From: a bacterium
Lineage (GTDB): Bacteria; Hydrothermota; Tepidihabitantia; Tepidihabitantales; Tepidihabitantaceae
DNA: 18,379 nucleotides
Assembly: GCA_046485285.1 (NCBI GenBank)
Contig: JAWOHE010000057.1
Location: forward strand, 1-18,379
Direction of reading: 5' to 3'
The position numbers and the translations under genes were made by a program. Positions within the stretch are counted from its first letter, which is position 1. Each line of letters opens with the position of its first letter. The notes beneath the pieces were generated by a model that was given only the letters and a program-made list of their open reading frames with translations, did not search any database and was not told where the DNA came from. Shown here piece by piece: positions 2,208 through 18,379 of this stretch.

Positions 2208-2236
2208 AGTATAGCCCTCCGCCTCTCGACGGTCAA
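2208..2236 (-). promoter_or_regulatory. Sigma70-type promoter for the repeat-protein gene
   Basis: TTGACC (2236-2231), 17 bp spacer, TATACT (2213-2208); 17 nt upstream of the TTG start. Confidence 0.75.
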
Positions 2237-2263
2237 CCTTCCCGGGCCCGCGCCGGCCGGTGC

Positions 2264-2291
2264 TTGACCGCAACCGCAACCGGCCTATGCT
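2264..2291 (+). promoter_or_regulatory. Sigma70-type promoter for the EEP nuclease gene
   Basis: TTGACC (2264-2269), 16 bp spacer, TATGCT (2286-2291); divergent from the 2208-2236 promoter. Confidence 0.6.
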
Positions 2292-2358
2292 GGGATGGAC
2301 CGCCGGAACGACCCCGTGGCGACGAGTGCGCCCCGGGGCGGAAACAGAGGAGGCAGCC

Positions 2359-3282
2359 ATGCCCGTTCCCGCCGACACGCCGCTTGAGGCGAAAGAGCGC
2401 CTGGCCCTGATGGACCTGATGGACGCAGGCGAGTACACCGTCGCGAAGCGCCAGGTCGACGAAAACATCATCATCGCGACCTGGAACATCCGGCAGTTCT
2501 CGGAGAACAAGTCCTGGCGGGCGCTCAAGTACATCGCCGACATCATCGAGCGCTTCGACCTCGTCGCCATCCAGGAGGTCAAGACCGACCTCCGCGGCCT
2601 CGCCCGCCTCCAGGAAATCCTGCCCGGCCGCTACCGCGTGCTCGTGACCGACGCCACCGGCAACTCCGAGCGGTTCGCGTTCCTCTACGACGCGCGGACG
2701 GTCGAGCCGACCGGCCTCGTTTCCGACGTCGCGCTCGACATCGACGTCACCGACCACGTCGGCTTCCAGCTCCACCGGATGCCCTACTGCGCGTCGTTCC
2801 GCGCCGGCCGCTTCGACTTCACCATTGTTTCGGTCCACATCTTCGACACCAGCCCGGAGTTCAAGGAGAAGGAAATCGCCCTGCTCGCCGACCGGGTCGC
2901 CGCCAAGGCACGCAGGCCCGGTACCAAGGTGGTTGACCGCGACCTGTTCGTCGTCGGCGACTTCAACATCCGGAAGGAGGGCGACCGTTTCTTCAGGGCG
3001 CTGGTCGAGAAGGGCGAGTTCGAGATGCCGGAGGTGCTCAACAAGCTCACGACCAACTTCAAGCGCACCGGCACCTACGACAAGATCGCCTGGGTGCGCA
3101 GGCGCAGGGACATCAGCTTCGCCGGCCGCTGCAACGTCGTGCCCTTCTACAAGGCGGTGTTCCAGGACCAGGAACCGCCCGGCGGCTATGCGCAGGTCAG
3201 TGATCACCTGCCGCTCTGGGCCGAGTTTCGCGTCAACGTGCTGACCCAGCAGCTCGAGCAGGTCATCAACCCGGGGCCCTGA
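2359..3282 (+). CDS. Endonuclease/exonuclease/phosphatase (EEP, DNase I-like) family protein, ~307 aa
   Basis: Motifs ATWNIRQF, AIQEV, SERFAFLYD, HRMPY, VHI, VGDFN, YDKI, SDHLP. Start moved from 2260 to ATG 2359, which follows GAGGAGG and lies downstream of the promoter. No signal peptide visible. Confidence 0.9.
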   Translation: MPVPADTPLEAKERLALMDLMDAGEYTVAKRQVDENIIIATWNIRQFSENKSWRALKYIADIIERFDLVAIQEVKTDLRGLARLQEILPGRYRVLVTDATGNSERFAFLYDARTVEPTGLVSDVALDIDVTDHVGFQLHRMPYCASFRAGRFDFTIVSVHIFDTSPEFKEKEIALLADRVAAKARRPGTKVVDRDLFVVGDFNIRKEGDRFFRALVEKGEFEMPEVLNKLTTNFKRTGTYDKIAWVRRRRDISFAGRCNVVPFYKAVFQDQEPPGGYAQVSDHLPLWAEFRVNVLTQQLEQVINPGP

Positions 3283-3399
3283 CTGACGGCACCGCCCCGC
3301 CCTGCCATCGTCGGGACTGTGGCGAAGGGCCTGCGGGCGCGGCAGCATCCTCCCGCTCGGCGTGCCGGGGCGGCAGTTGCGGCCGGGCCCGGACGTCGC

Positions 3400-4566
3400 T
3401 CAGCGGCTCCCGAGGATGGCGGCGACCTGCTGGTCGATTTCCGGCCGGGCGTCCCGCGCCAGTTGCGCGAACGCCTCGTCCCCGAGCCGCGCACGAAGGT
3501 CGTCGAGGCACTCCCGCGCCGTCCCGGCATGGTGCGACTTGAGTTGCTCGAAGACCGCCAGCGCGACGGAGTAGTTGACCAACGCGGCCCGGTAGTCGTT
3601 CTCGACCTCGGCGAGCATGCCGAGCTGTCCCAGCGTCGTGGCGATTCCGGTCCTGCTGCCCAGCTCGCGCTTCAGGGCAAGGCTCTCCTCGTACAGCTCC
3701 CGGGCCGCGGCGACGTTCCCCTGCTCCTGGCTCAACATCGCGAGCTGGTGCAGGCCGCGCGCGATGCCGTGCTTGTCGCCGTGCTCCCGCGCGAGTTTGA
3801 GGCTTTCCTCGTACAGCTCCCGGGCCCGGCCGAAGTTGCCCTGGACCTGGTGGACCGTGGCGAGGTTGTGGAGCGTCTGGGCGACGGCGGGGGCGCTGCT
3901 GTGCCTGCGCGCGAGCACCAGGCTCTCTTCGTAGAGGGAGCGCGCGCGGGGGATCTCGCCCTTGACCTGGTGGATGAGCCCGAGGTGGTGCAGCGCCTTG
4001 GCCACCCCGCTGTCGTCCCCGAGCCTGCGGGTGAGTGCGAGACTCTCTTCGAAGAGCCTGCGCGCCTCGTCGAGCTCGCCCCAGTCGTGACGGACGACCC
4101 CGGCGTTGTGCAGGGCGATGCCCCGGCCCCGCTGATCGTCCAGTTGCCCGGCAAGGCGGGCCGACTCCTCGTAGTTCTCCAGCGCCTGCTGGCGTCGCTC
4201 GGCCAGGTAGTGGCAGAGGCCGACGAGGTTGAACAGGGCCGCCAGCTCGGTGCCCCGGGCTTCCTTCATCGCCGCGCGGTAGTGGCGGATGGCCTCGTCC
4301 CACCGGTACGCCCGGCGTGCCGCTTCGCCGAGCAGGAACCGGTCCCGGACCGGCGCGGCGGCGGCGGGCAGGCCGTCGAGGTAGGCCCGGAGGTCGTGGC
4401 GCAACCCTTCGACGTCCCGCTGGAGCACGTCCAGCCGGGTCTCGGTCATCCGGCCCTGGCTCTTTGAGCGGCGGTAGAGGTAGACCGAGAGCCCGATGCC
4501 CACCGCGGCCAGCACGACCCCGGCCAGCGTCCAGAAGAGGGCTTCGGGCATCCCCAGTACCGTCAT
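3400..4566 (-). CDS. Membrane-anchored tetratricopeptide-repeat protein (40-aa TPR repeats)
   Basis: N-terminal TM helix (LFWTLAGVVLAAVGIGLSVYLY-RRSK), short coiled coil, then about 6-7 repeats with 40-aa period (e.g. ALHNAG...EESL, ALHHLG...YEESL, TLHNLA...YEESL, GLHQLA...YEESL). Confidence 0.88.
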   Translation of the reverse strand: MTVLGMPEALFWTLAGVVLAAVGIGLSVYLYRRSKSQGRMTETRLDVLQRDVEGLRHDLRAYLDGLPAAAAPVRDRFLLGEAARRAYRWDEAIRHYRAAMKEARGTELAALFNLVGLCHYLAERRQQALENYEESARLAGQLDDQRGRGIALHNAGVVRHDWGELDEARRLFEESLALTRRLGDDSGVAKALHHLGLIHQVKGEIPRARSLYEESLVLARRHSSAPAVAQTLHNLATVHQVQGNFGRARELYEESLKLAREHGDKHGIARGLHQLAMLSQEQGNVAAARELYEESLALKRELGSRTGIATTLGQLGMLAEVENDYRAALVNYSVALAVFEQLKSHHAGTARECLDDLRARLGDEAFAQLARDARPEIDQQVAAILGSR

Positions 4567-4572
4567 GGTTCG

Positions 4573-4600
4573 AGTCTAGGGACGGCCCCTCGGCTGTCAA
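4573..4600 (-). promoter_or_regulatory. Sigma70-type promoter for the TPR gene (probably leaderless)
   Basis: TTGACA (4600-4595), 16 bp spacer, TAGACT (4578-4573), then 6 nt to ATG 4566; no SD. Confidence 0.7.
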
Positions 4601-4685
4601 TCCGGCCCCGGCCCGCGCGGCCCGCCGCGGCCAACGCGCGCAGGGACGCTCCTGCCATCCTGCGGCGGCCCGGCAGGTCGGCCGC

Positions 4686-4715
4686 TTGACATCCCACCCC
4701 GGCCGGCCGTAGACT
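4686..4715 (+). promoter_or_regulatory. Sigma70-type promoter for the 4755 gene
   Basis: TTGACA (4686-4691), 18 bp spacer, TAGACT (4710-4715). Confidence 0.65.
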
Positions 4716-4754
4716 GCATCCCATGTTTCGCGACACGCCGGCAGGCAGGAGGCA

Positions 4755-5219
4755 GTGATGGAGCTACTCAAGTTCGCGGTGCCGGGCCTGACCGCCCTGC
4801 TGGGCCTGGTGAAACTGCTCAACATCCCGGGCCGGGCCCTCAAGCTCCTGACCACCCTGCTCATCATCCTGAGCGGCGCCGGCTCGGCCGCGCTCATCGG
4901 GCAGAGCGGCAAGGCCGAGGCGCGCCGGGCCGTCGCGGCCGAGGAGGCCCAGCGTCGGGCCGAGGACAAGCTCAACCGGATGTCCGACGCCCTGCTCGGC
5001 ATCCAGCAGAACCTGGCCGAACTGCAGGTCCAGCTTGCCCGGGCGCCGCAGGGTTCGCCCGGCTCCGCCTCGGCCCGTACTGCGCTCGCGGCCACCCTGA
5101 AGAGGGTCAGCGACGCCAAGCTGATCGCCAACCCGGCCGAGCCGCCGGCCGAATCGAGCGAGACTCCCGCCGCGCCGGTCTCGCCTGCCGTCGGCACCCC
5201 GGACAGCGACGACCGGTAA
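4755..5219 (+). CDS. Hypothetical membrane protein: 1-2 N-terminal hydrophobic helices, coiled coil, Pro/Ser/Ala-rich acidic tail
   Basis: SD AGGAGG at 4747-4752 before GTG 4755/ATG 4758; GC3-rich codon usage; hydrophobic N-terminus; heptad-like segment EDKLNRMSDALLGIQQNLAELQVQL. Confidence 0.75.
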   Translation: MMELLKFAVPGLTALLGLVKLLNIPGRALKLLTTLLIILSGAGSAALIGQSGKAEARRAVAAEEAQRRAEDKLNRMSDALLGIQQNLAELQVQLARAPQGSPGSASARTALAATLKRVSDAKLIANPAEPPAESSETPAAPVSPAVGTPDSDDR

Positions 5220-11386: not shown

Positions 11387-12233
11387 CGTTTCGATCCTGA
11401 TCGTCACCTGGCAGAGCGGCCGTGACATCGAGACCTGCCTCGACTCGATTCACTCGCGCCGCGAATTTGAGGTCATCGTCGTCGACAACGCCTCGACTGA
11501 CGACACCCGCGCGCGACTGGACCGGTATCATCACCTCACCGTCATCGCAAACGAGCGAAACCTCGGCTACGCCCGGGCCACCAACCAGGGCCTCGCCGCC
11601 TGCCGCGGCGAGCATGTCCTGATGCTCAACCCGGACACGAAGCTCGAACCCGGAGCCATTGACGCACTCCTCGACCACCTCGATGCGAACCCCGGCCACG
11701 CCGCAGTTGCCCCCCGGCTTCTCAACCTTGATGGCACGCTCCAGCGCTCGGTGAGGGGACTGCCGACGCCGGCCGCCGCGTTCTGGGACCTGACCGGCCT
11801 GGCGTTCGTCTTCTCGCGGAATCGCCGCATCGGACGCATCCGGATGGCCTGGTTCGACTACGACTCGGCCGGCCCCGCACCCCAGCCGATGGCATCGTGC
11901 CTCGTCTTCCGCCGTAAGGTGCTGGTCGAGCTCGGCGGTATGGACGAACGCCTGCCGATATTCTACAATGACGTTGACCTGTCGCTGCGGATGGCCGCAC
12001 GGGGACTTGTCACCTGGTACCTGCCGACATCACGTGTCTTCCACGCACGCGGGGCAAGTACCGGCCAGGCCAGACCAAGGATGCTGCGCGAGCAGTACCG
12101 CTCGCTCATCCGCTGTCTCGCCATCCACGACCGATCCGGATGGTTCTGGCTGAAGTCGGTTGCGCTGGTGCCGCTGGCCGGCCTGGTAATGCTCGTGCGG
12201 ACGCTGGCCTGGCGCCGGCGCCGGCGCGGCTAG
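11370..12233 (+). CDS. GT2 family glycosyltransferase (WbbL/GT2-like)
   Basis: VSILIVTW, VVDNASTD, NLGYARATNQG, LMLNPDT, GGMDE...FYNDVDLS, H..GAS; TTG start overlaps the previous gene. Confidence 0.9.
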   Translation: MASRPSVSILIVTWQSGRDIETCLDSIHSRREFEVIVVDNASTDDTRARLDRYHHLTVIANERNLGYARATNQGLAACRGEHVLMLNPDTKLEPGAIDALLDHLDANPGHAAVAPRLLNLDGTLQRSVRGLPTPAAAFWDLTGLAFVFSRNRRIGRIRMAWFDYDSAGPAPQPMASCLVFRRKVLVELGGMDERLPIFYNDVDLSLRMAARGLVTWYLPTSRVFHARGASTGQARPRMLREQYRSLIRCLAIHDRSGWFWLKSVALVPLAGLVMLVRTLAWRRRRRG

Positions 12234-13423
12234 CTGACCGACCGACGCACAAGTATCTCGAGTCGCTCGGCCAGCCGTCTGGCCTGCGCGCGCCGGTCGA
12301 ACCGTTCCCGACCTTTCCCGGCGAATCGGGCCGGGTCGCGGGCAACCTCGGCCAGCGCCTGCCCCAGCCCGGCCTTGTCGCGCGCCCAGCGGCCGCAACC
12401 GCACGATTCGACCAGCGCACCGGCCTCGGCGGTATCCGGCCCGTAGACGACCACCGGCCGCCGCGCCCCCAGGTACTCGTAGAGCTTGATACCCACAGGC
12501 TGGCCGGGCTTGCCGACATAGAGCAGGACGCCTGCTCCGAGCATCAAGCGACACGCATCGCCGTGGTCGAGAGTCCCGAGGAGCGTCACGCGCGAGTCGC
12601 GGGCCAGGCGTCGCGCCGGCTCGGTCGCTACCCGGCCGGCGACATATAGCCGAGCGCCGGGCACCGCGTCGAGTGCCCCAACCGCGTGCTCGAAATCCCT
12701 CTCATTCTCCCAGAGGTTGCCGACATGGACGACCGCGAAGCCATCGAGCTTCTCCGCCTCGCGTTCGAACTCGGTCGGGTCGAACCCGTTCTCGAGCACC
12801 TCGACGCCGGACCCGGCAAGTCGGGCGGTGCCCTCATTGACGGCCAACGCCAGGTCGGCGTGACGCAACAGCTGCTGCCGCAGGCGGGCGAGCGCGCTTC
12901 GCTGCCAGGCCGGCGGCGGCTGGAAGCCGGTCGGCCAGGGGTCGCGGAAGTCGAGCACAAGCGGCAGGCGCGACTGCGCCTTCAGCCGCGTGCCGATTAC
13001 GAGCGAGGTGAACGGCGGCGCGGTCGCGAAGATGGCCGCCGGCTTCTCCCGCTCGATGATGCGCCCGCCCTCGCGGACCGCGAACGGCGTCCAGCCGACC
13101 TTGGCGTCCGGAAAGAGAAGGTAGTTGAGGAGCCGCGGGCCCCGGCCGAGGTGGCGGGCCGCTGAAGGTCGCAGGCGGGCTCGCACGGGCCGTAGCCGGT
13201 TCAGGAGTCGTGCCGGGTCAGTGCTTTCAGTCCGGTAGATCTGCGACCCGGCGAGGTCTTCAAGGAGCTGCGGGTCGTAGTGGTAGTAGGCCGCAGGCTT
13301 CACTGTCAGGATCAGCGGCCGCCAGCCAAACTCGGGCAGAAACTTGCACAGCTTGGTAACCCGCATCACGCCGGATAGCCCGAGCGGCGGAGTGTAGTAG
13401 GCGACGACGAGCAGGCGGCGCAT
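12230..13423 (-). CDS. GT-B fold (GT4-like) glycosyltransferase
   Basis: LVVAYYTPP...GV.R..KL.K.L..FGW, FPD...GW, ATAPPF, DFRDPW, NGFDP, KLYEYLGARRPV. ATG overlaps the helicase stop (TGATG). Confidence 0.88.
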   Translation of the reverse strand: MRRLLVVAYYTPPLGLSGVMRVTKLCKFLPEFGWRPLILTVKPAAYYHYDPQLLEDLAGSQIYRTESTDPARLLNRLRPVRARLRPSAARHLGRGPRLLNYLLFPDAKVGWTPFAVREGGRIIEREKPAAIFATAPPFTSLVIGTRLKAQSRLPLVLDFRDPWPTGFQPPPAWQRSALARLRQQLLRHADLALAVNEGTARLAGSGVEVLENGFDPTEFEREAEKLDGFAVVHVGNLWENERDFEHAVGALDAVPGARLYVAGRVATEPARRLARDSRVTLLGTLDHGDACRLMLGAGVLLYVGKPGQPVGIKLYEYLGARRPVVVYGPDTAEAGALVESCGCGRWARDKAGLGQALAEVARDPARFAGKGRERFDRRAQARRLAERLEILVRRSVS

Positions 13424-15447
13424 CAGCGGGTTCCGCCCACCCGCTCGGCAATCCGCGCCGACACGGTCTCCGCCGTCATCTCAACCGGCTTCACCCGGCG
13501 CAGGAACTCAATCGTACCGCCCATATCGAGTGCCAGCAGGTGGTCCTCCACCTTGAGTTCATCGGGCAGTAATCCGAAGAAAGCGCCCGAGCCAAGGCTG
13601 TCTTCGAGTCGGGCCAGGTTGCGCCGGACGACCTCGCGCATGGCACCCGGTTCCGGGACCGGAAACCGCCCGAGTGCCGTACAGCCGCAAAGCGCGAACA
13701 GCCGGCCATCGAGGTCGGTCGCGCTGACGCCCGAGGCCCCGAGCGCCTCGGAGATGAGATAGCCATGGGTCGTGCCGAGGAGATGCAGGATGAACACCTG
13801 ACCGCCGTCACGAAACCACGGGAACTCATCCGGCTCGAGCTCTGGGAACAACTTCGACTTCAGGACGCGTGCCAATCCGTGGCCGTGACCACCCGTGCCG
13901 GTGCCTTCGAACACCTTCGTTGCCGCCCCGACCGCTCCCGACGGCCGGACCAGCAAGAGGCGCTCCTTCTCTCGGAACTCTGCCAACTCCCATGTCCGGC
14001 CGCCGAGCAGGAACTGGCGGAAGACGAAGAAGACCGTGCCGAGGGACCGACCGGTGGACGCCTCGCGCACCTCAAACTTGCCGAAGCTCTTCTGCTGGAT
14101 GTTTGAGTGAATCCGGCCATATCGGACCTGCGTCTCGAGACGGTCGCCCAGCGTATAGATGCCGGGCCGGGTCGAAACCACCACCTCCTCATTGACCAGG
14201 TGCCGGAACACTTGCTCGACCGCCGGCGCGCTCTCAGCCGGGAAGATCCGGCGAACCGCGGCGAGCGTCGCGCCGACGCGGCGACGCTGGTACAGGTAGG
14301 ACACTATCTGCTGGGGAATCACCGCCAGCGTGGGCGTGTAGGGCTTCTCGTGGAGCCGACCCTGCCGCGCGCATTCGAACAGCGTTTCGAACTGGAACCG
14401 CTCCCAGCCGTCCGTGAAGAAGCCAAGCGCAACCAGCCGGCCCTGGTCCCGCCGGTTGCCTCGTCCGATGCGCTGGAGCAGTGACGAGACGTTGAACGGC
14501 GGCCGGACAAGCACGACCGCATCGACGTCGCCGATGTCGATACCGAGTTCGAGGGTCGAGGTGCAACACAGCAGCCCCGAGTTATCGGCGGTCATCGCAG
14601 CCTCGACCTCCTCGCGTACGCGGCGGTCGAGACTGCCATGATGTACGCGAACCCGGCCCTGGAACGGCGGCCGGTCGAGCTGGGCGACCGACGACTCGGC
14701 CCACGACCGGGCGTTGAAGAACACCAGCGCCTTGCGACAGCCACGAGCAGCCAGCTCGCAGACGACCCGGCCGGCCCAGTCGCCGTCCATCGGGAACAGC
14801 GCGGCGTCGATGGCACGCGCATCGTCGACCTTGACCGTGCCCGCCCTCGGGAAGTAGCGCGCACCGATCGCATCGTCGTCGACGGTGGCCGACAGGGCAC
14901 AGAACTGGAGCCCCGTCCTGACCAACCGCAACCGCTCGAGCAGAACCCGGAGCTGGTCCCCACGCGGAGAGTTGTCGAGCAGGTGCAGTTCGTCCAGCAC
15001 GACCGCCGCCAACGACAAGAGGTCGCGAGGCCGCCGGCACAGCAGCGAGTCCAGCGACTCAGGCGTCGTGATTAGCAGGAACGGCAGCGCCCGCGCGGCT
15101 TCTCGGGGGTGGTCGCCGGTCTTCCGGCCAACTTCCAGCCCGAGCGCGGCTACCGGCCCTTCGAGCCGCCGGTGAAGGTCATTGACCAGCGCCCGTGTCG
15201 GCGACACATACAGGACCGCCGGCTCGGGCGGCTGGCGTTCATCGGCCAGGATGCGCTCGATGAGTGGAGCCGCGACCGCCTCTGTCTTACCCGTCGCTGC
15301 CGGCGAGATCAGCACCAGGCTCTCTCCCCGGAGCACACGAGGTATTGCCAGTTCCTGGATCCGAGTCAGCTGTCCGAAGCGGGAGAAGAACGGAAACCAG
15401 GTCCGCCTGAGCTGCTGCCGGATTGCCTGCGGGTCCGCAGCAATCAA
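13423..15447 (-). CDS. Lhr-like SF2 DExH-box helicase (BrxHI/SngC-like), ~674 aa
   Basis: Q-motif FGQLTRIQ; I SPAATGKTE; Ia SPTRALVND; Ib TTPESL; II DELH; III SAT; IV VFFNAR; HHGSL; V TSTLELGIDIG; VI QRIGRGNR; then a winged-helix-like segment and FLLGGRTW. Start moved to TTG 15447, 7 nt after the upstream stop (track start 15609). Confidence 0.9.
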   Translation of the reverse strand: MIAADPQAIRQQLRRTWFPFFSRFGQLTRIQELAIPRVLRGESLVLISPAATGKTEAVAAPLIERILADERQPPEPAVLYVSPTRALVNDLHRRLEGPVAALGLEVGRKTGDHPREAARALPFLLITTPESLDSLLCRRPRDLLSLAAVVLDELHLLDNSPRGDQLRVLLERLRLVRTGLQFCALSATVDDDAIGARYFPRAGTVKVDDARAIDAALFPMDGDWAGRVVCELAARGCRKALVFFNARSWAESSVAQLDRPPFQGRVRVHHGSLDRRVREEVEAAMTADNSGLLCCTSTLELGIDIGDVDAVVLVRPPFNVSSLLQRIGRGNRRDQGRLVALGFFTDGWERFQFETLFECARQGRLHEKPYTPTLAVIPQQIVSYLYQRRRVGATLAAVRRIFPAESAPAVEQVFRHLVNEEVVVSTRPGIYTLGDRLETQVRYGRIHSNIQQKSFGKFEVREASTGRSLGTVFFVFRQFLLGGRTWELAEFREKERLLLVRPSGAVGAATKVFEGTGTGGHGHGLARVLKSKLFPELEPDEFPWFRDGGQVFILHLLGTTHGYLISEALGASGVSATDLDGRLFALCGCTALGRFPVPEPGAMREVVRRNLARLEDSLGSGAFFGLLPDELKVEDHLLALDMGGTIEFLRRVKPVEMTAETVSARIAERVGGTR

Positions 15448-15454
15448 GGTTCCC

Positions 15455-16798
15455 TCAGCCTCGCTTCTTGCCCCGGCCTTCTTCGGCGCCTCCGAAGCGG
15501 GCCACGTCCAAGCTCTCGACCGCGTGCTTGATGAACGCCCGCACGCCGTCTGCCCCGCGCTCGGTCGCCGCCCTGAACACCCGCTTCTGCTCCAGCTCGC
15601 CAAACGCAAAACCAGCGTGCGCCCGCTGATACAGAGTCACCAACGTACTGAACGCCTCGACCAGCGCGCGGTCTTCCAGTGGTGCGAGCGTCACCCGTCG
15701 CTCGATGCGGTTGGCAAGCTTGAGGTAGCTGTACTCGTTCGGACTCGGCGTGGTCGCAAACACCAGCAGGAGCGACGGGTCACGGTAGATGTAGGGCACG
15801 GGCCGGACGCGATTGTGTATCATCCGGCCATCAACCCGCCTGAGCTCGGGGTCGTTCCTAGCAGTCCGCACCAGACCCTCCATGAAGTTGACGCTCTTGG
15901 CAAGGTAGACAACATCCCACAGCCTCGTAACGGTTTCCGCCTCGTCAACCAGCAGTACCAGCCCCTTGAGGCCGACCTGCCTGGCAATCCAGCTCAGGCC
16001 GGAGAGGATGTTGCAGTAGAAATCGGCGGCGGTCGAGAAGTCGTAGAGCGCCGGTATCCGCTGGCCGCCTCGAACCCGGTTCTGGCTCGTGGCGTCGGTC
16101 GCGTACTCCTTGGTGCTCTCGCCCTCAATCCACTGCCAGAATACCTCGCTCTCGAGGTTGCCGGCGTCAAGTCGCCGGAGCTTGGCGAGTACTGGACCAA
16201 AGAACACGTGGTCCCGCATCTCGAGCCCGGACGCATCGCGCAGCAAGTCACGGTAGCCATGCTCCCGGCCATCCTTCAGATAGCGCAGGTTGCTGATGAG
16301 CTCGCGGTAGACCCGCTTGGGTCGATGCGGGCTGACCTCGAGCGGGTCGAACCGGCAGACAGTCGCGCACATACCCTCCTTGAGCGCCCGGTGATGGATG
16401 TACTCGAGCAGGTGGGTCTTGCCGGTGCCGTACTCCCCCTCGACGAGGTACACATCGCCCGTGCCCTGCGCGAGACCGGCAAGCGCGGACTCCGCGATCG
16501 CGACTTCGCGCTCGCGGCCGAATGTGAATGCCTCGATGTCCTGGACCGGGACGATTCCCAGCCGGAACGCCTCGATGATCCGGCAGGCCTGGACGCGCGT
16601 CACCGCGCTCACCCGCGGGCTCACGCCGGCAACAAGCTCGGCTGCAGCAAGTCGAACCAACCGCAGTCGCCTGGTTGGCAGCCACAGCTTGAGCCCGCTC
16701 GCGAACTCGCAGAACAGCTCGGTACCGCCCCAGCGCGAGTCCCGAACCTCGCCTTCCCCGAAAACCGGATGCGCCACCACCCGAGTGCCGGTGCTCAT
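15455..16798 (-). CDS. BrxD/DUF2791-like P-loop ATPase with N-terminal Tudor-like domain
   Basis: IIEAFRLGIVP...FTFGRERE; Walker A GEYGTGKT; Walker B GLVLLVDEAE; VFATTP; N-terminal V.HP.FG.GEV. Confidence 0.82.
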   Translation of the reverse strand: MSTGTRVVAHPVFGEGEVRDSRWGGTELFCEFASGLKLWLPTRRLRLVRLAAAELVAGVSPRVSAVTRVQACRIIEAFRLGIVPVQDIEAFTFGREREVAIAESALAGLAQGTGDVYLVEGEYGTGKTHLLEYIHHRALKEGMCATVCRFDPLEVSPHRPKRVYRELISNLRYLKDGREHGYRDLLRDASGLEMRDHVFFGPVLAKLRRLDAGNLESEVFWQWIEGESTKEYATDATSQNRVRGGQRIPALYDFSTAADFYCNILSGLSWIARQVGLKGLVLLVDEAETVTRLWDVVYLAKSVNFMEGLVRTARNDPELRRVDGRMIHNRVRPVPYIYRDPSLLLVFATTPSPNEYSYLKLANRIERRVTLAPLEDRALVEAFSTLVTLYQRAHAGFAFGELEQKRVFRAATERGADGVRAFIKHAVESLDVARFGGAEEGRGKKRG

Positions 16799-16838
16799 TG
16801 CTGACCCTCAGCCTCTTCCCTTCGCCTGCCGAGGTCTG

Positions 16839-18113
16839 CTAGAACTCCTCGCGCTCGACGTCGGCCCGCTCGGTCTGCTCGAGCCGCTGGGAAGTTACGC
16901 GCAGGAGCTTCTCGGCAGCCTTCCGGTCGAACTCCTGGCCGGGCTCGGCACGCAGCTTGTGCAACGCTTCGACCAGGCTGACCACGAAGAGCCGCCGGTA
17001 GCTGATGTCGAACATGAAGGCGGCCACCGCCAGCCGGGCCAGCAGACCGATAACCCGGTCGCGACGCTCGGCAACCAGTTCAACATCATAGGCCGCCTCG
17101 AAGACCGCGGCGAGCCGTGTGCCCAGTCGTAGGAGGAACTCCTCAGGGTCGATCCCGAGGTCGTCAAGGTTGACGCGGACTCCGACAGGGTTGATGCCAC
17201 TGAACTGGCTACGCAGTCGCTGTTTGAGTGCCTCATAGACCCCGCCAGAGCCCTCGAGCAACAGGTTCTCGTCCGGCACCGCGTAGAAGATCATCGCGCC
17301 GGGCAGACGCGAGTTGCCGCACTCGTCAACGAGCTGGCGCAGGTTGTCAAGCGCCCGGCGCCTGTCGCGCGAGGACGAAAGAGACATCCCGCGTTCGGCC
17401 TCGTCGAACAGCAGCACCAGCCCGTTGTAGCCGATTGAGTGCACCCACTGGATGAGCGAGCGCAACATCCTGAACGCTGTCGCCTTGTCAACCCGCTCCG
17501 AGATACGATGCCGCAGCCGAACTTCCCTGTCGACCTCCTCGCCCTTGAGCCACTGGACGATGCTGTTGAAGCCTTCGGCGTCGTCCGCAACCAGTGCGTC
17601 AAAGGCCGCGCGTACTGCGTTTGAGAAGCTCGAGCTCTCGGTCGGCGCGAGTTCTTCAACTTGGTGCTTGAGCTCGGTAACTCGCTCGGCCGTTACCCGC
17701 CTCGCGGCGTACCAGTGTCGCAGAACCGCCTCGATGCCCCGCTCCGTGCCGGGCACGGGCTGGTCCGAAGGAACCGGCACACTGATGCCTGCGACAACGG
17801 CTCGGTAGACCAACTCAAGCCGGTCGAACGGGCACTCGGTCGGACTCAGGCTGACGTACGAAACGCAGTAGTTGTTCCGAAACGCGAGATTCCGGACCGA
17901 GTAAAGGAAATGGGTCTTGCCGCCGCCGTAGTTGCCGGTCACCAGCTTGAAGCTCGACAGGTTCCAGGTCAGAATACCCTTCAGGTACTCCTCCTCCAGC
18001 ACCCCGAGGTAGCGCTCCAGTCCAATGGTGAATGCGTCGAGCCCGAACTCGGGAGGTGTCCCGGTCGCGCCCAGCTTGCTGACGATCGCGCGCGCCAGAC
18101 CCCTCTCCATCAT
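16839..18113 (-). CDS. BrxD/DUF2791-like P-loop ATPase
   Basis: AIVSKLG.TGTPP..G...FT.GL; Walker A FKLVTGNYGGGKT; V.LSP.E.PF; QWLKGE; GYNGLVLLFDEAE (Walker B); ALDNLRQLVD; YEALKQRL. ATG overlaps the upstream stop (ATGA). Confidence 0.87.
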   Translation of the reverse strand: MMERGLARAIVSKLGATGTPPEFGLDAFTIGLERYLGVLEEEYLKGILTWNLSSFKLVTGNYGGGKTHFLYSVRNLAFRNNYCVSYVSLSPTECPFDRLELVYRAVVAGISVPVPSDQPVPGTERGIEAVLRHWYAARRVTAERVTELKHQVEELAPTESSSFSNAVRAAFDALVADDAEGFNSIVQWLKGEEVDREVRLRHRISERVDKATAFRMLRSLIQWVHSIGYNGLVLLFDEAERGMSLSSSRDRRRALDNLRQLVDECGNSRLPGAMIFYAVPDENLLLEGSGGVYEALKQRLRSQFSGINPVGVRVNLDDLGIDPEEFLLRLGTRLAAVFEAAYDVELVAERRDRVIGLLARLAVAAFMFDISYRRLFVVSLVEALHKLRAEPGQEFDRKAAEKLLRVTSQRLEQTERADVEREEF

Positions 18114-18379
18114 CCCTCTTCCGGGTATGACAGGTGTGAGTAGTTGGTACCCTCGCCCTGATCATTATCCGGGACCCATAGCGCCTTTGCCCTGCTGGTC
18201 GTCGAGTCAAAAGCCGCAACGTGCAGCCGGGGCGCCTCGCCGCCCGGCGGCGACTGCCGCAGCCGATACAGGTCGTGACTGAACTGCACCCTCGGATATT
18301 CGAGGAACCGCCGCCTCACCGGGTCGGCACGGAACGCCTCGGGCTGGATGAGCAGAATCAGCTCGGACAGCAGCTCGAT
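18110..18379 (-). CDS. C-terminal 89 aa of a protein of unknown function (5' end beyond the window), upstream member of the ATPase-helicase operon
   Basis: Frame open from the window edge: IELLSELILLIQPEAFRADPVRRRFLEYPRVQFSHDLYRLRQS...RLHVAAFDST...LWVPDNDQGEGTNYSHLSYPEEG*. Stop overlaps the ATPase start. Confidence 0.75.
   Translation of the reverse strand: MELLSELILLIQPEAFRADPVRRRFLEYPRVQFSHDLYRLRQSPPGGEAPRLHVAAFDSTTSRAKALWVPDNDQGEGTNYSHLSYPEEG

Follow-up and report, generated by a model that had tools for sequence, protein, structure and literature searches.

The stretch of DNA analysed here (the window) is the whole of an 18,379-base contig (JAWOHE010000057.1; C36) from a 2.34-Mb bacterial genome (GCA_046485285.1; 88% complete, ~68% G+C), and its proteins have their closest relatives among entries labelled candidate division WOR-3. 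Towards its right-hand end, four co-directional and closely spaced genes on the minus strand form a cassette, whose members we refer to as A, B1, B2 and H. Gene A is represented by its C-terminal 89 codons (18110-18379), its open reading frame (ORF) being open at the window end. B1 (16839-18113) encodes a BrxD-type AAA+ ATPase of 424 amino acids (aa), which resembles origin recognition complex (ORC)/Cdc6 proteins, carries no extra domain and was identified with Pfam, PADLOC and NCBIfam. B2 (15455-16798) encodes a paralogous BrxD-type ATPase of 447 aa (Pfam, PADLOC and AlphaFold2, AF2) with an N-terminal Tudor domain; an AF2 model and profile searches place a five-stranded β-barrel of the PcrA/UvrD C-terminal type at residues 6-50 (16649-16783, minus strand). 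H (13423-15447) encodes a superfamily 2 (SF2) DExH helicase of the Lhr-core/BrxHI/SngC type (Pfam and PADLOC). The start codon of H is uncertain: counted from the TTG at 15447, the protein has 674 aa, and the frame stays open to 15609. The A/B1 junction is an ATGA overlap (18110-18113), while B1 and B2 are spaced by 40 bases and B2 and H by 7 bases. The ORF coordinates thus bear out the initial annotation of this DNA, which described four tightly packed, co-oriented genes.

That annotation also noted that the operon is cut at the right edge of the window, and extension beyond this edge completes gene A. The last 191 bases of the window (18189-18379) correspond end to end, at 100% identity, to positions 3597-3787 of a second contig of the genome (C12, 3787 bases; L004), the reverse complement of which opens with this stretch. 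The break lies inside gene A, the remainder of which runs on the plus strand of C12 from 2991 (TTG) or 3027 (ATG) to 3785, contributing approximately 200 N-terminal codons and giving a full-length protein of ~279-291 aa. A third contig (C53) carries a 31-base, 94% match to the overlap stretch. In a sister genome, the order GT4-H-B2-B1-A-DUF2769 (GT4 being a family 4 glycosyltransferase) is found on one contig (L039), which supports the join. On the 5' side of A, C12 carries a small Cys-rich DUF2769 gene, followed by divergent FeS-assembly and DsbD-like genes. The DUF2769 gene (L004 2560-2946, plus strand) is also present in the sister genome (L039 10225-10641), and other families lack it. The possibility that upstream genes complete a canonical bacteriophage exclusion (BREX) or Shango locus was rejected, as C12 shows that the operon opens at A, with DUF2769 beyond. 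The joined sequence therefore presents a complete four-gene cassette, A-B1-B2-H and nothing more, whose interruption is due to assembly alone.

Both ATPases match the Pfam family BrxC_BrxD, B1 over its full length (residues 7-398, E = 2.3e-47) and B2 with E = 3.4e-24. The PADLOC BrxD model gave 1.4e-44 for B1 and 1.2e-25 for B2, with weaker scores for SngB (5.6e-21 and 4.7e-11 respectively). With the NCBIfam model BREX_BrxD (NF033438), B1 reached 151.5 bits and B2 86.9 bits against a cut-off of 350, which marks both as homologues rather than equivalogs. The nucleotide-binding motifs are intact in both proteins (Walker A GNYGGGKT and Walker B LVLLFDE in B1; GEYGTGKT and LVLLVDE in B2) and are invariant throughout the B1 and B2 alignments. 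As modelled by AF2 (predicted local distance difference test, pLDDT, 89.9), B2 consists of the barrel, a disordered linker and the AAA+ body. A Foldseek search with the whole protein placed ORC1, ORC4, Cdc6 and archaeal Orc1 among the top-ranked structures (E of 1.3e-4 to 8e-4, probability 1.00). In a 45-row tree, computed by a quick IQ-TREE search with approximate likelihood ratio (SH-aLRT) supports only, all B1 sequences fall in one clade and all B2 sequences in the other, with a support of 100. This reciprocal monophyly demonstrates that the duplication is older than the spread of these lineages and that the two genes travelled together. B1 and B2 are ancient paralogues, in line with the two divergent BrxD-type proteins first described.

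The two paralogues differ at their N-termini. All relatives of B2 share an N-terminal motif, H-P-x-F-G-x-G-x-V ... F-x-x-G-L-x-L-W, and the full-length AF2 model, from which the barrel was read, has strands at residues 6-10, 14-22, 27-32, 37-41 and 46-50 (block pLDDT 69-96 over residues 1-50). A 43-position profile built from 18 B2 N-termini was searched against 177,635 PDB sequences with E up to 10; the top four of the nine matches are UvrD/PcrA C-terminal domains (7egt_B, 0.01; 4c2t_A, 0.027; 7egs_B, 0.063; 6yi2_A, 0.074). When the B2 N-termini were compared by hhalign with 11 UvrD C-termini of the same phylum, a match of 97.6% probability (E = 4.5e-12) was obtained over 38 columns. The Pfam model for this Tudor domain, PF21196, gives weak matches (0.0015-0.05) with three B2 relatives. 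Fold and profile homology thus agree in identifying the predicted barrel as a PcrA/UvrD-type Tudor domain. The start of canonical BrxD aligns at B2 residues 63-70, beyond the barrel, and PMC12839542 describes BrxD as a stand-alone ATPase without additional domains; the Tudor domain therefore sets B2 apart. According to PMC8318588, the PcrA Tudor binds an insert of the β subunit of RNA polymerase (RNAP) via a 'helicase interaction motif', which UvrB carries as well; PcrA is further described there as a suppressor of R-loops.

H matches the Pfam families DEAD (2.3e-29) and Helicase_C (9.5e-16), and its best PADLOC models are BrxHI (5.9e-69) and SngC (7.3e-61). The motifs DELH, SAT and QRIGRGNR are present, so that the reading of motifs confirms the complete helicase and ATPase signatures reported at the outset. 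The best solved relatives are mycobacterial Lhr structures (5v9x_A, 4.7e-28; 7lhl_A, 2e-27), aligned mainly over residues 4-200. The NCBIfam model DEXH_lig_assoc reached 201 bits against a cut-off of 850, and no Pfam family matched the C-terminal 335 aa. PMC5758891 describes Lhr as translocating 3'-to-5' on single-stranded DNA and unwinding RNA:DNA duplexes. Three proteins of 942-965 aa (P0075, P0138 and P0182) consist of a B2-type ATPase fused to a DEAD/Helicase_C helicase; P0182 also has a weak N-terminal Tudor match. These natural fusions provide a Rosetta-stone link between B2 and H, and fit the ATPase-helicase partnership that had been proposed.

The PADLOC models that score best with B1, B2 and H are BrxD, SngB, BrxHI and SngC, and the cassette could be a fixed anti-phage or anti-plasmid system of the Shango/BrxD-BrxHI kind. 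The ATPase pair would then sense foreign DNA, or phage interference with transcription via the Tudor domain, and set H on the invader, with A as sensor or effector. No recognisable nuclease or toxin effector was found in the cassette, which speaks against such a system, and we regard this explanation as doubtful, though still a serious rival.

Protein A has no family match in Pfam, PADLOC or NCBIfam. Its homologues form 43 clusters of ~280 aa, and none of 36 A-family members matches the TerB families at E up to 1, in agreement with the view that the upstream protein is not TerB-like. The AF2 model of an orthologue that is 86% identical to A (P0002; pLDDT 79.9) contains an N-terminal three-helix bundle (helices 2-30, 36-51 and 56-93), followed by a five-stranded sheet (100-138), more helices and a C-terminal sheet of lower confidence. 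Foldseek found nothing in the PDB at E up to 0.001 (best 0.2), and VIA-align wide returned only generic three-helix-bundle matches, over residues 1-78 and with Z up to 9.1. Many charged and aromatic positions are invariant in the alignment of A. Look-alike clusters in the ESM Atlas (score 0.97, TM 0.87 over 276 residues) are most commonly labelled Chloroflexota, Thermodesulfobacteriota and Acidobacteriota and are taken as leads only; a profile search yielded one relative labelled Gemmatimonadota. A predicted complex of A (P0002 chain) with B1 scored 0.48 (runs 0.48, 0.51 and 0.02), the best of three controls scoring 0.00, with a partner pLDDT of at least 82 and runs agreeing in at least 63% of contacts. 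In calibration, 18 of 157 solved complexes reached the mark with scores of 0.60 or under, as did both mismatches (of 215) that passed, and this weak prediction is not counted as evidence.

The distribution of the cassette was followed in 201 genomes of the phylum, all comparison genomes being metagenome bins. A and B1 are each present in 71 of the 201, in nearly the same set of genomes, and with one full copy per genome; a second, partial match occurs in G185 alone. Whole families (numbered f1, f2 and so on) are filled, namely f1 (18-19 of 19), f2 (4/4), f3 (3/3), f4 (8/8), f6 (10/10), f7 (5-6 of 6), f23 (8/8) and f29 (5/5), and others lack the cassette altogether (f8, 0/7; f13, 0/6; f16, 0/8; f17, 0/14; f19, 0/20). 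All families with two or more rows in the tree (f1, f4, f6, f7 and f29) form a single clade in both the B1 and the B2 half. The identity of B1 to that of the window falls from 85% within the genus to 65-72% within the family, 53-61% within the order or class and 41-50% in other classes. The genome's own UvrD-like helicase diverges faster, with 66-75% identity within the family and 30-43% beyond it, and at E up to 1e-40 it was not found in 10 of the 19 genomes of the window's family. Given the single copy, the filled families and the congruent tree, inheritance is strictly vertical, which is the pattern that the initial annotation had set against its own proposal of a defence system. A defence system might be dispensable, as the families without the cassette show it to be, although single-copy, clade-wide presence, a tree that matches taxonomy to the level of class and a B1 more conserved than the UvrD-like helicase speak against one.

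In loci fetched around A, with ORFs called mechanically, the order A-B1-B2 is seen in 19 of 20 and H is adjacent in 13; one more locus is cut by a contig end. Four of the five genomes without an adjacent H encode an H orthologue (40-50% identical) elsewhere, and in f3, f18 and f23, A and B1 (or B1-B2) lie on separate contigs. That the parts are kept in a small genome after loss of linkage argues for a standing cellular role, and against the defence explanation in particular.

The distribution of the Tudor domain was also compared with UvrD in the same phylum. A scan with PF21196 detected the domain in 47 of the 201 genomes, comprising 46 of the 130 that are cassette-free and one of the 71 with the cassette (G183). 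These counts suggested strict mutual exclusion of the cassette and a Tudor-bearing UvrD. UvrD C-termini were therefore read in 20 genomes, hand-picked from the UvrD-like orthologue search, and strict exclusion was rejected, as the Pfam scan had missed the Tudor domains of f19 and f29 has both. Eight of the 11 cassette-free genomes have a Tudor motif on UvrD (four of f19 and one each of f14, f32, f17 and f31, degenerate in the last) and three do not (two of f8 and one of f21). Conversely, UvrD is without a Tudor in seven of the nine cassette genomes (one each of f1, f7 and f18, two each of f6 and f23) and with one in the remaining two (both f29). The UvrD-like protein of the window's genome (682 aa) ends without a Tudor, and Mfd is present there too. 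Five cassette genomes without a UvrD-like match were examined, and in three of them (G003, G024 and G091; 95-99% complete) the only UvrD-family ORFs are AddA-sized (1057-1083 aa). Within the phylum, UvrD and B2 are thus mostly alternative bearers of the Tudor domain, although this tendency has clear exceptions; in some cassette lineages a PcrA/UvrD-type helicase is not seen at all. The G183 match (L142 2-1387, contig C51) is a genuine C-terminal half of PcrA/UvrD; the contig is short and its bin is listed with 2% contamination, so that its origin is uncertain.

In the wider family, a search of 1.84 billion representatives gave 974 relatives of B2 with E up to 1e-3, of which 226 have E up to 1e-30. 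Fifteen distant B2 proteins were aligned (26-36% identity to the first row) and used as query in a metagenome scan, which yielded 51 loci with a GC content of 0.28-0.73. Profiles built from WOR-3 sequences recognised all four genes in the order A-B1-B2-H and on the same strand in 15 loci. The others are mostly cut by contig ends; L168, L201 and L206 have room for the cassette and miss a part. In the last two (L201 5683-7697 and L206 787-2816, both of high GC), an A-like and a B1-like gene are followed by kilobases of sequence without B2 or an Lhr-like helicase, and these may represent a different variant of the family. The 47 ORFs flanking ten metagenome loci are mostly ordinary, including purD, argH, LptF/G, an HtrA-like protease, ClpP, NAD kinase and a UvrD helicase. 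A JAB protein (L178) and an ATPase_2/DUF234 protein (L172) are also found beside distant copies. In L190 (7865-10044) B2 and the helicase gene are separated by an inserted pair of HEPN and PIN genes, and in L203 (9534-11543) a convergent UvrD-family helicase of 669 aa directly follows the helicase gene. The persistence of one gene order over so wide a range of GC content suits a spreading defence system, as do those flanks that hold toxin-antitoxin or STAND genes. On the other hand, no close relatives were found on plasmids or phages: none of 72,556 plasmid records covers 80% of B2, the only matches being to distant BREX-2 BrxD, and 50,697 phage records gave no B2 match. Full-text literature searches, which do not extend to supplements, returned no publication describing or naming this cassette.

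The genes beside the cassette vary between families. Directly downstream of H in the window is a GT4 gene (12230-13423, minus strand; Pfam Glyco_trans_4_4 and Glyco_trans_1_4), the ATG of which shares one base with the H stop codon (TGATG). GT4 follows H in 7 of the 20 loci, in families f1 and f5 only and alongside genes for GT2, an epimerase and GDP-mannose dehydratase; it is probably a family-restricted neighbour that lies outside the system. Outside the cassette, the window has genes for a GDP-mannose dehydratase, an epimerase, glycosyltransferases of families GT2 and GT4, a transporter of the major facilitator superfamily (MFS), a radical SAM enzyme and a GyrI-like protein. Three further minus-strand frames (1-2190, 2233-3348 and 3266-5197; 730, 371 and 643 aa) have no Pfam match; their DNA is 70-75% G+C, and they may be real proteins or chance frames. 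Sorting tails for type IX secretion are found on further proteins of this genome (L004 3-650). The 53 ORFs flanking seven WOR-3 loci include sugar-nucleotide enzymes, MgtE, fumarase, a class II tRNA synthetase (PF00152) and secreted proteases. DNA-transaction genes stand beside some copies, with a MutS-domain protein, DnaG and RpoD in L111, UvrC in L126 and UvrD in L203. The ORF layout around the cassette is repeated within WOR-3 families, and neither the window nor the 53 and 47 flanking ORFs contain integrase, transposase, restriction-modification or Cas genes. Apart from a single DUF559 ORF (L135), these stable housekeeping flanks are again at odds with a defence system. Where the initial annotation proposed an anti-phage or DNA-processing system, DNA processing fits these data better, and the anti-phage alternative finds no support in context or distribution.

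On this basis we propose that the cassette encodes an inherited genome-maintenance machine, perhaps tethered to RNAP, that is kin to Shango and BrxD-BrxHI, a proposal to which we would give an even chance. Gene content, domain homologies, fusions, inheritance and distribution are observed; from these we infer how the parts would bind, on what substrate and to what cellular end. B1 and B2, both with intact motifs, would form an ORC-like hetero-oligomer, possibly with A. By analogy with PcrA/UvrD, the Tudor domain of B2 would tether this complex to a partner carrying the 'helicase interaction motif', either RNAP β or UvrB. The ATPase pair may then load or activate H, an Lhr-type 3'-to-5' helicase, on DNA where transcription has stalled or where R-loops or lesions occur, and its task would be to remove R-loops or stalled complexes. 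Where a clade has a Tudor-less UvrD, or none, the cassette may do part of the PcrA/UvrD work. The most specific form of this model, in which an RNAP-tethered ORC/Cdc6-like pair loads the Lhr-type helicase and a four-protein, transcription-coupled R-loop or repair machine stands in for PcrA/UvrD in large clades of the phylum, is put forward tentatively and seems to us rather improbable.

Alternatively, the proteins might act as a helicase loader or remodeller in repair or replication restart that is independent of RNAP, with the Tudor domain bound to UvrB, another repair protein or nucleic acid, and with a merely coincidental relation to UvrD. The ORC/Cdc6-like fold of B2 is compatible with this, as is the suggestion, made in PMC12839542, that BrxD loads BrxHI. 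The closest solved relative of H is, moreover, the DNA-repair helicase Lhr, UvrB is among the partners of the PcrA Tudor given in PMC8318588, and DNA-transaction neighbours occur at L111, L126 and L203. However, these neighbours carry little weight as they vary between families, no lesion-recognition or nuclease domain was found, and nothing in the present data separates an RNAP-independent from an RNAP-coupled version. We consider this alternative distinctly unlikely.

Several observations weigh against the proposed genome-maintenance role. All three recognisable proteins are closest to anti-phage components (BrxD, BrxHI, SngB and SngC), and the cassette members have no known function. The absence of the cassette from whole families indicates that it is dispensable. 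Conflict-type genes flank some distant copies, namely HEPN and PIN (L190), a nucleotidyltransferase (L178) and nSTAND1-WD40 (L182), and the WOR-3 flanks themselves hold a DUF559/MTES_1575 restriction endonuclease-like ORF (L135) and a helicase-RNase H pair (L071). With regard to the Tudor domain, the PDB matches of the B2 N-terminus are individually marginal (E of 0.01-0.074), PF21196 stays below threshold on the B2 of the window, and a Tudor fold does not prove RNAP binding. The relation to UvrD has exceptions in both directions, in that the cassette and a Tudor on UvrD occur together in f29 (2/2) and G183, while f8 (2/2) and f21 have neither. The genomes compared are kin and hand-picked, so that no valid statistic can be attached to this link. 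Finally, the window's own genome has both a UvrD-like helicase and Mfd, and no repair gap is thus shown there.

If the cassette is indeed a maintenance machine, it would have taken over, by non-orthologous replacement, a repair helicase function that is nearly universal, and a 'defence' module would have housekeeping kin, which bears on defence predictions made from homology only. Were it tethered to RNAP, Shango and BrxD-BrxHI would be relatives of a housekeeping machine and may themselves act through RNA polymerase. Should it instead be a fixed defence system, phylum-deep vertical inheritance of such a system would in itself be unusual. The putative Tudor docking domain offers a concrete handle on the mechanism of both BrxD-BrxHI and Shango.

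Among known systems, the closest parallel is the BrxD-BrxHI dyad of type 2 BREX, in which a BrxD-type ATPase is likewise encoded beside an Lhr/Ski2-like SF2 helicase and whose PADLOC models score highest with B1, B2 and H. PMC12839542 presents BrxD-BrxHI as a tightly linked dyad whose mechanism is still uncharacterised, with BrxD proposed to load BrxHI in the manner of a replicative-helicase loader. In that 2026 survey of BREX, the dyad appears within type 2 BREX only, and the new BREX-related systems are centred on DUF499. The cassette differs from type 2 BREX in having two ancient ATPases instead of one, a Tudor domain on B2, the extra protein A and vertical inheritance. Neither the window nor C12 contains PglZ, and the genome's single PF08665 match, on another contig (L005 838-2349, contig C57), is a protein that joins a PglZ domain to a response regulator receiver and resembles the PorX type. 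As regards BrxC/PglY, PF10923 matches only B1 and B2 in this genome (88% complete). No PglX or PglW domains were found among the Pfam-scanned ORFs of the window and C12, a genome-wide search not having been made.

Shango consists of a TerB-domain protein (SngA), an ATPase (SngB) and a helicase (SngC). It is reportedly a defence system, and to our knowledge no mechanism has been established for it. The present cassette shares with Shango a small upstream protein, a DUF2791-type ATPase, an Lhr-like helicase and the lack of a methylase or PglZ. It differs in that A is not TerB-like (with no PADLOC SngA or Pfam TerB match), in that the ATPase is duplicated and one copy carries a Tudor domain, and in that the SngB and SngC scores are below those of BrxD and BrxHI. 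SngA, TerB_N and TerB_C were not found in the window's genome with models that were also silent on control genomes. Judged by sequence, the cassette is thus related to BrxD-helicase systems and is neither canonical BREX nor Shango, as the initial annotation had anticipated.

In PcrA/UvrD, a Tudor domain of the same type is likewise joined with 3'-to-5' helicase activity in one system, and the role of the cassette at RNA polymerase and R-loops would, on the best reading, be analogous to that outlined for PcrA in PMC8318588. In contrast to PcrA/UvrD, the Tudor domain of the cassette is N-terminal and on an AAA+ ATPase, the helicase belongs to SF2 rather than superfamily 1 (SF1), and the activities are distributed over four proteins instead of one. 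Three features of the cassette go beyond these known systems, namely the Tudor domain of B2, vertical inheritance that reaches deep into the phylum and the distribution relative to UvrD.

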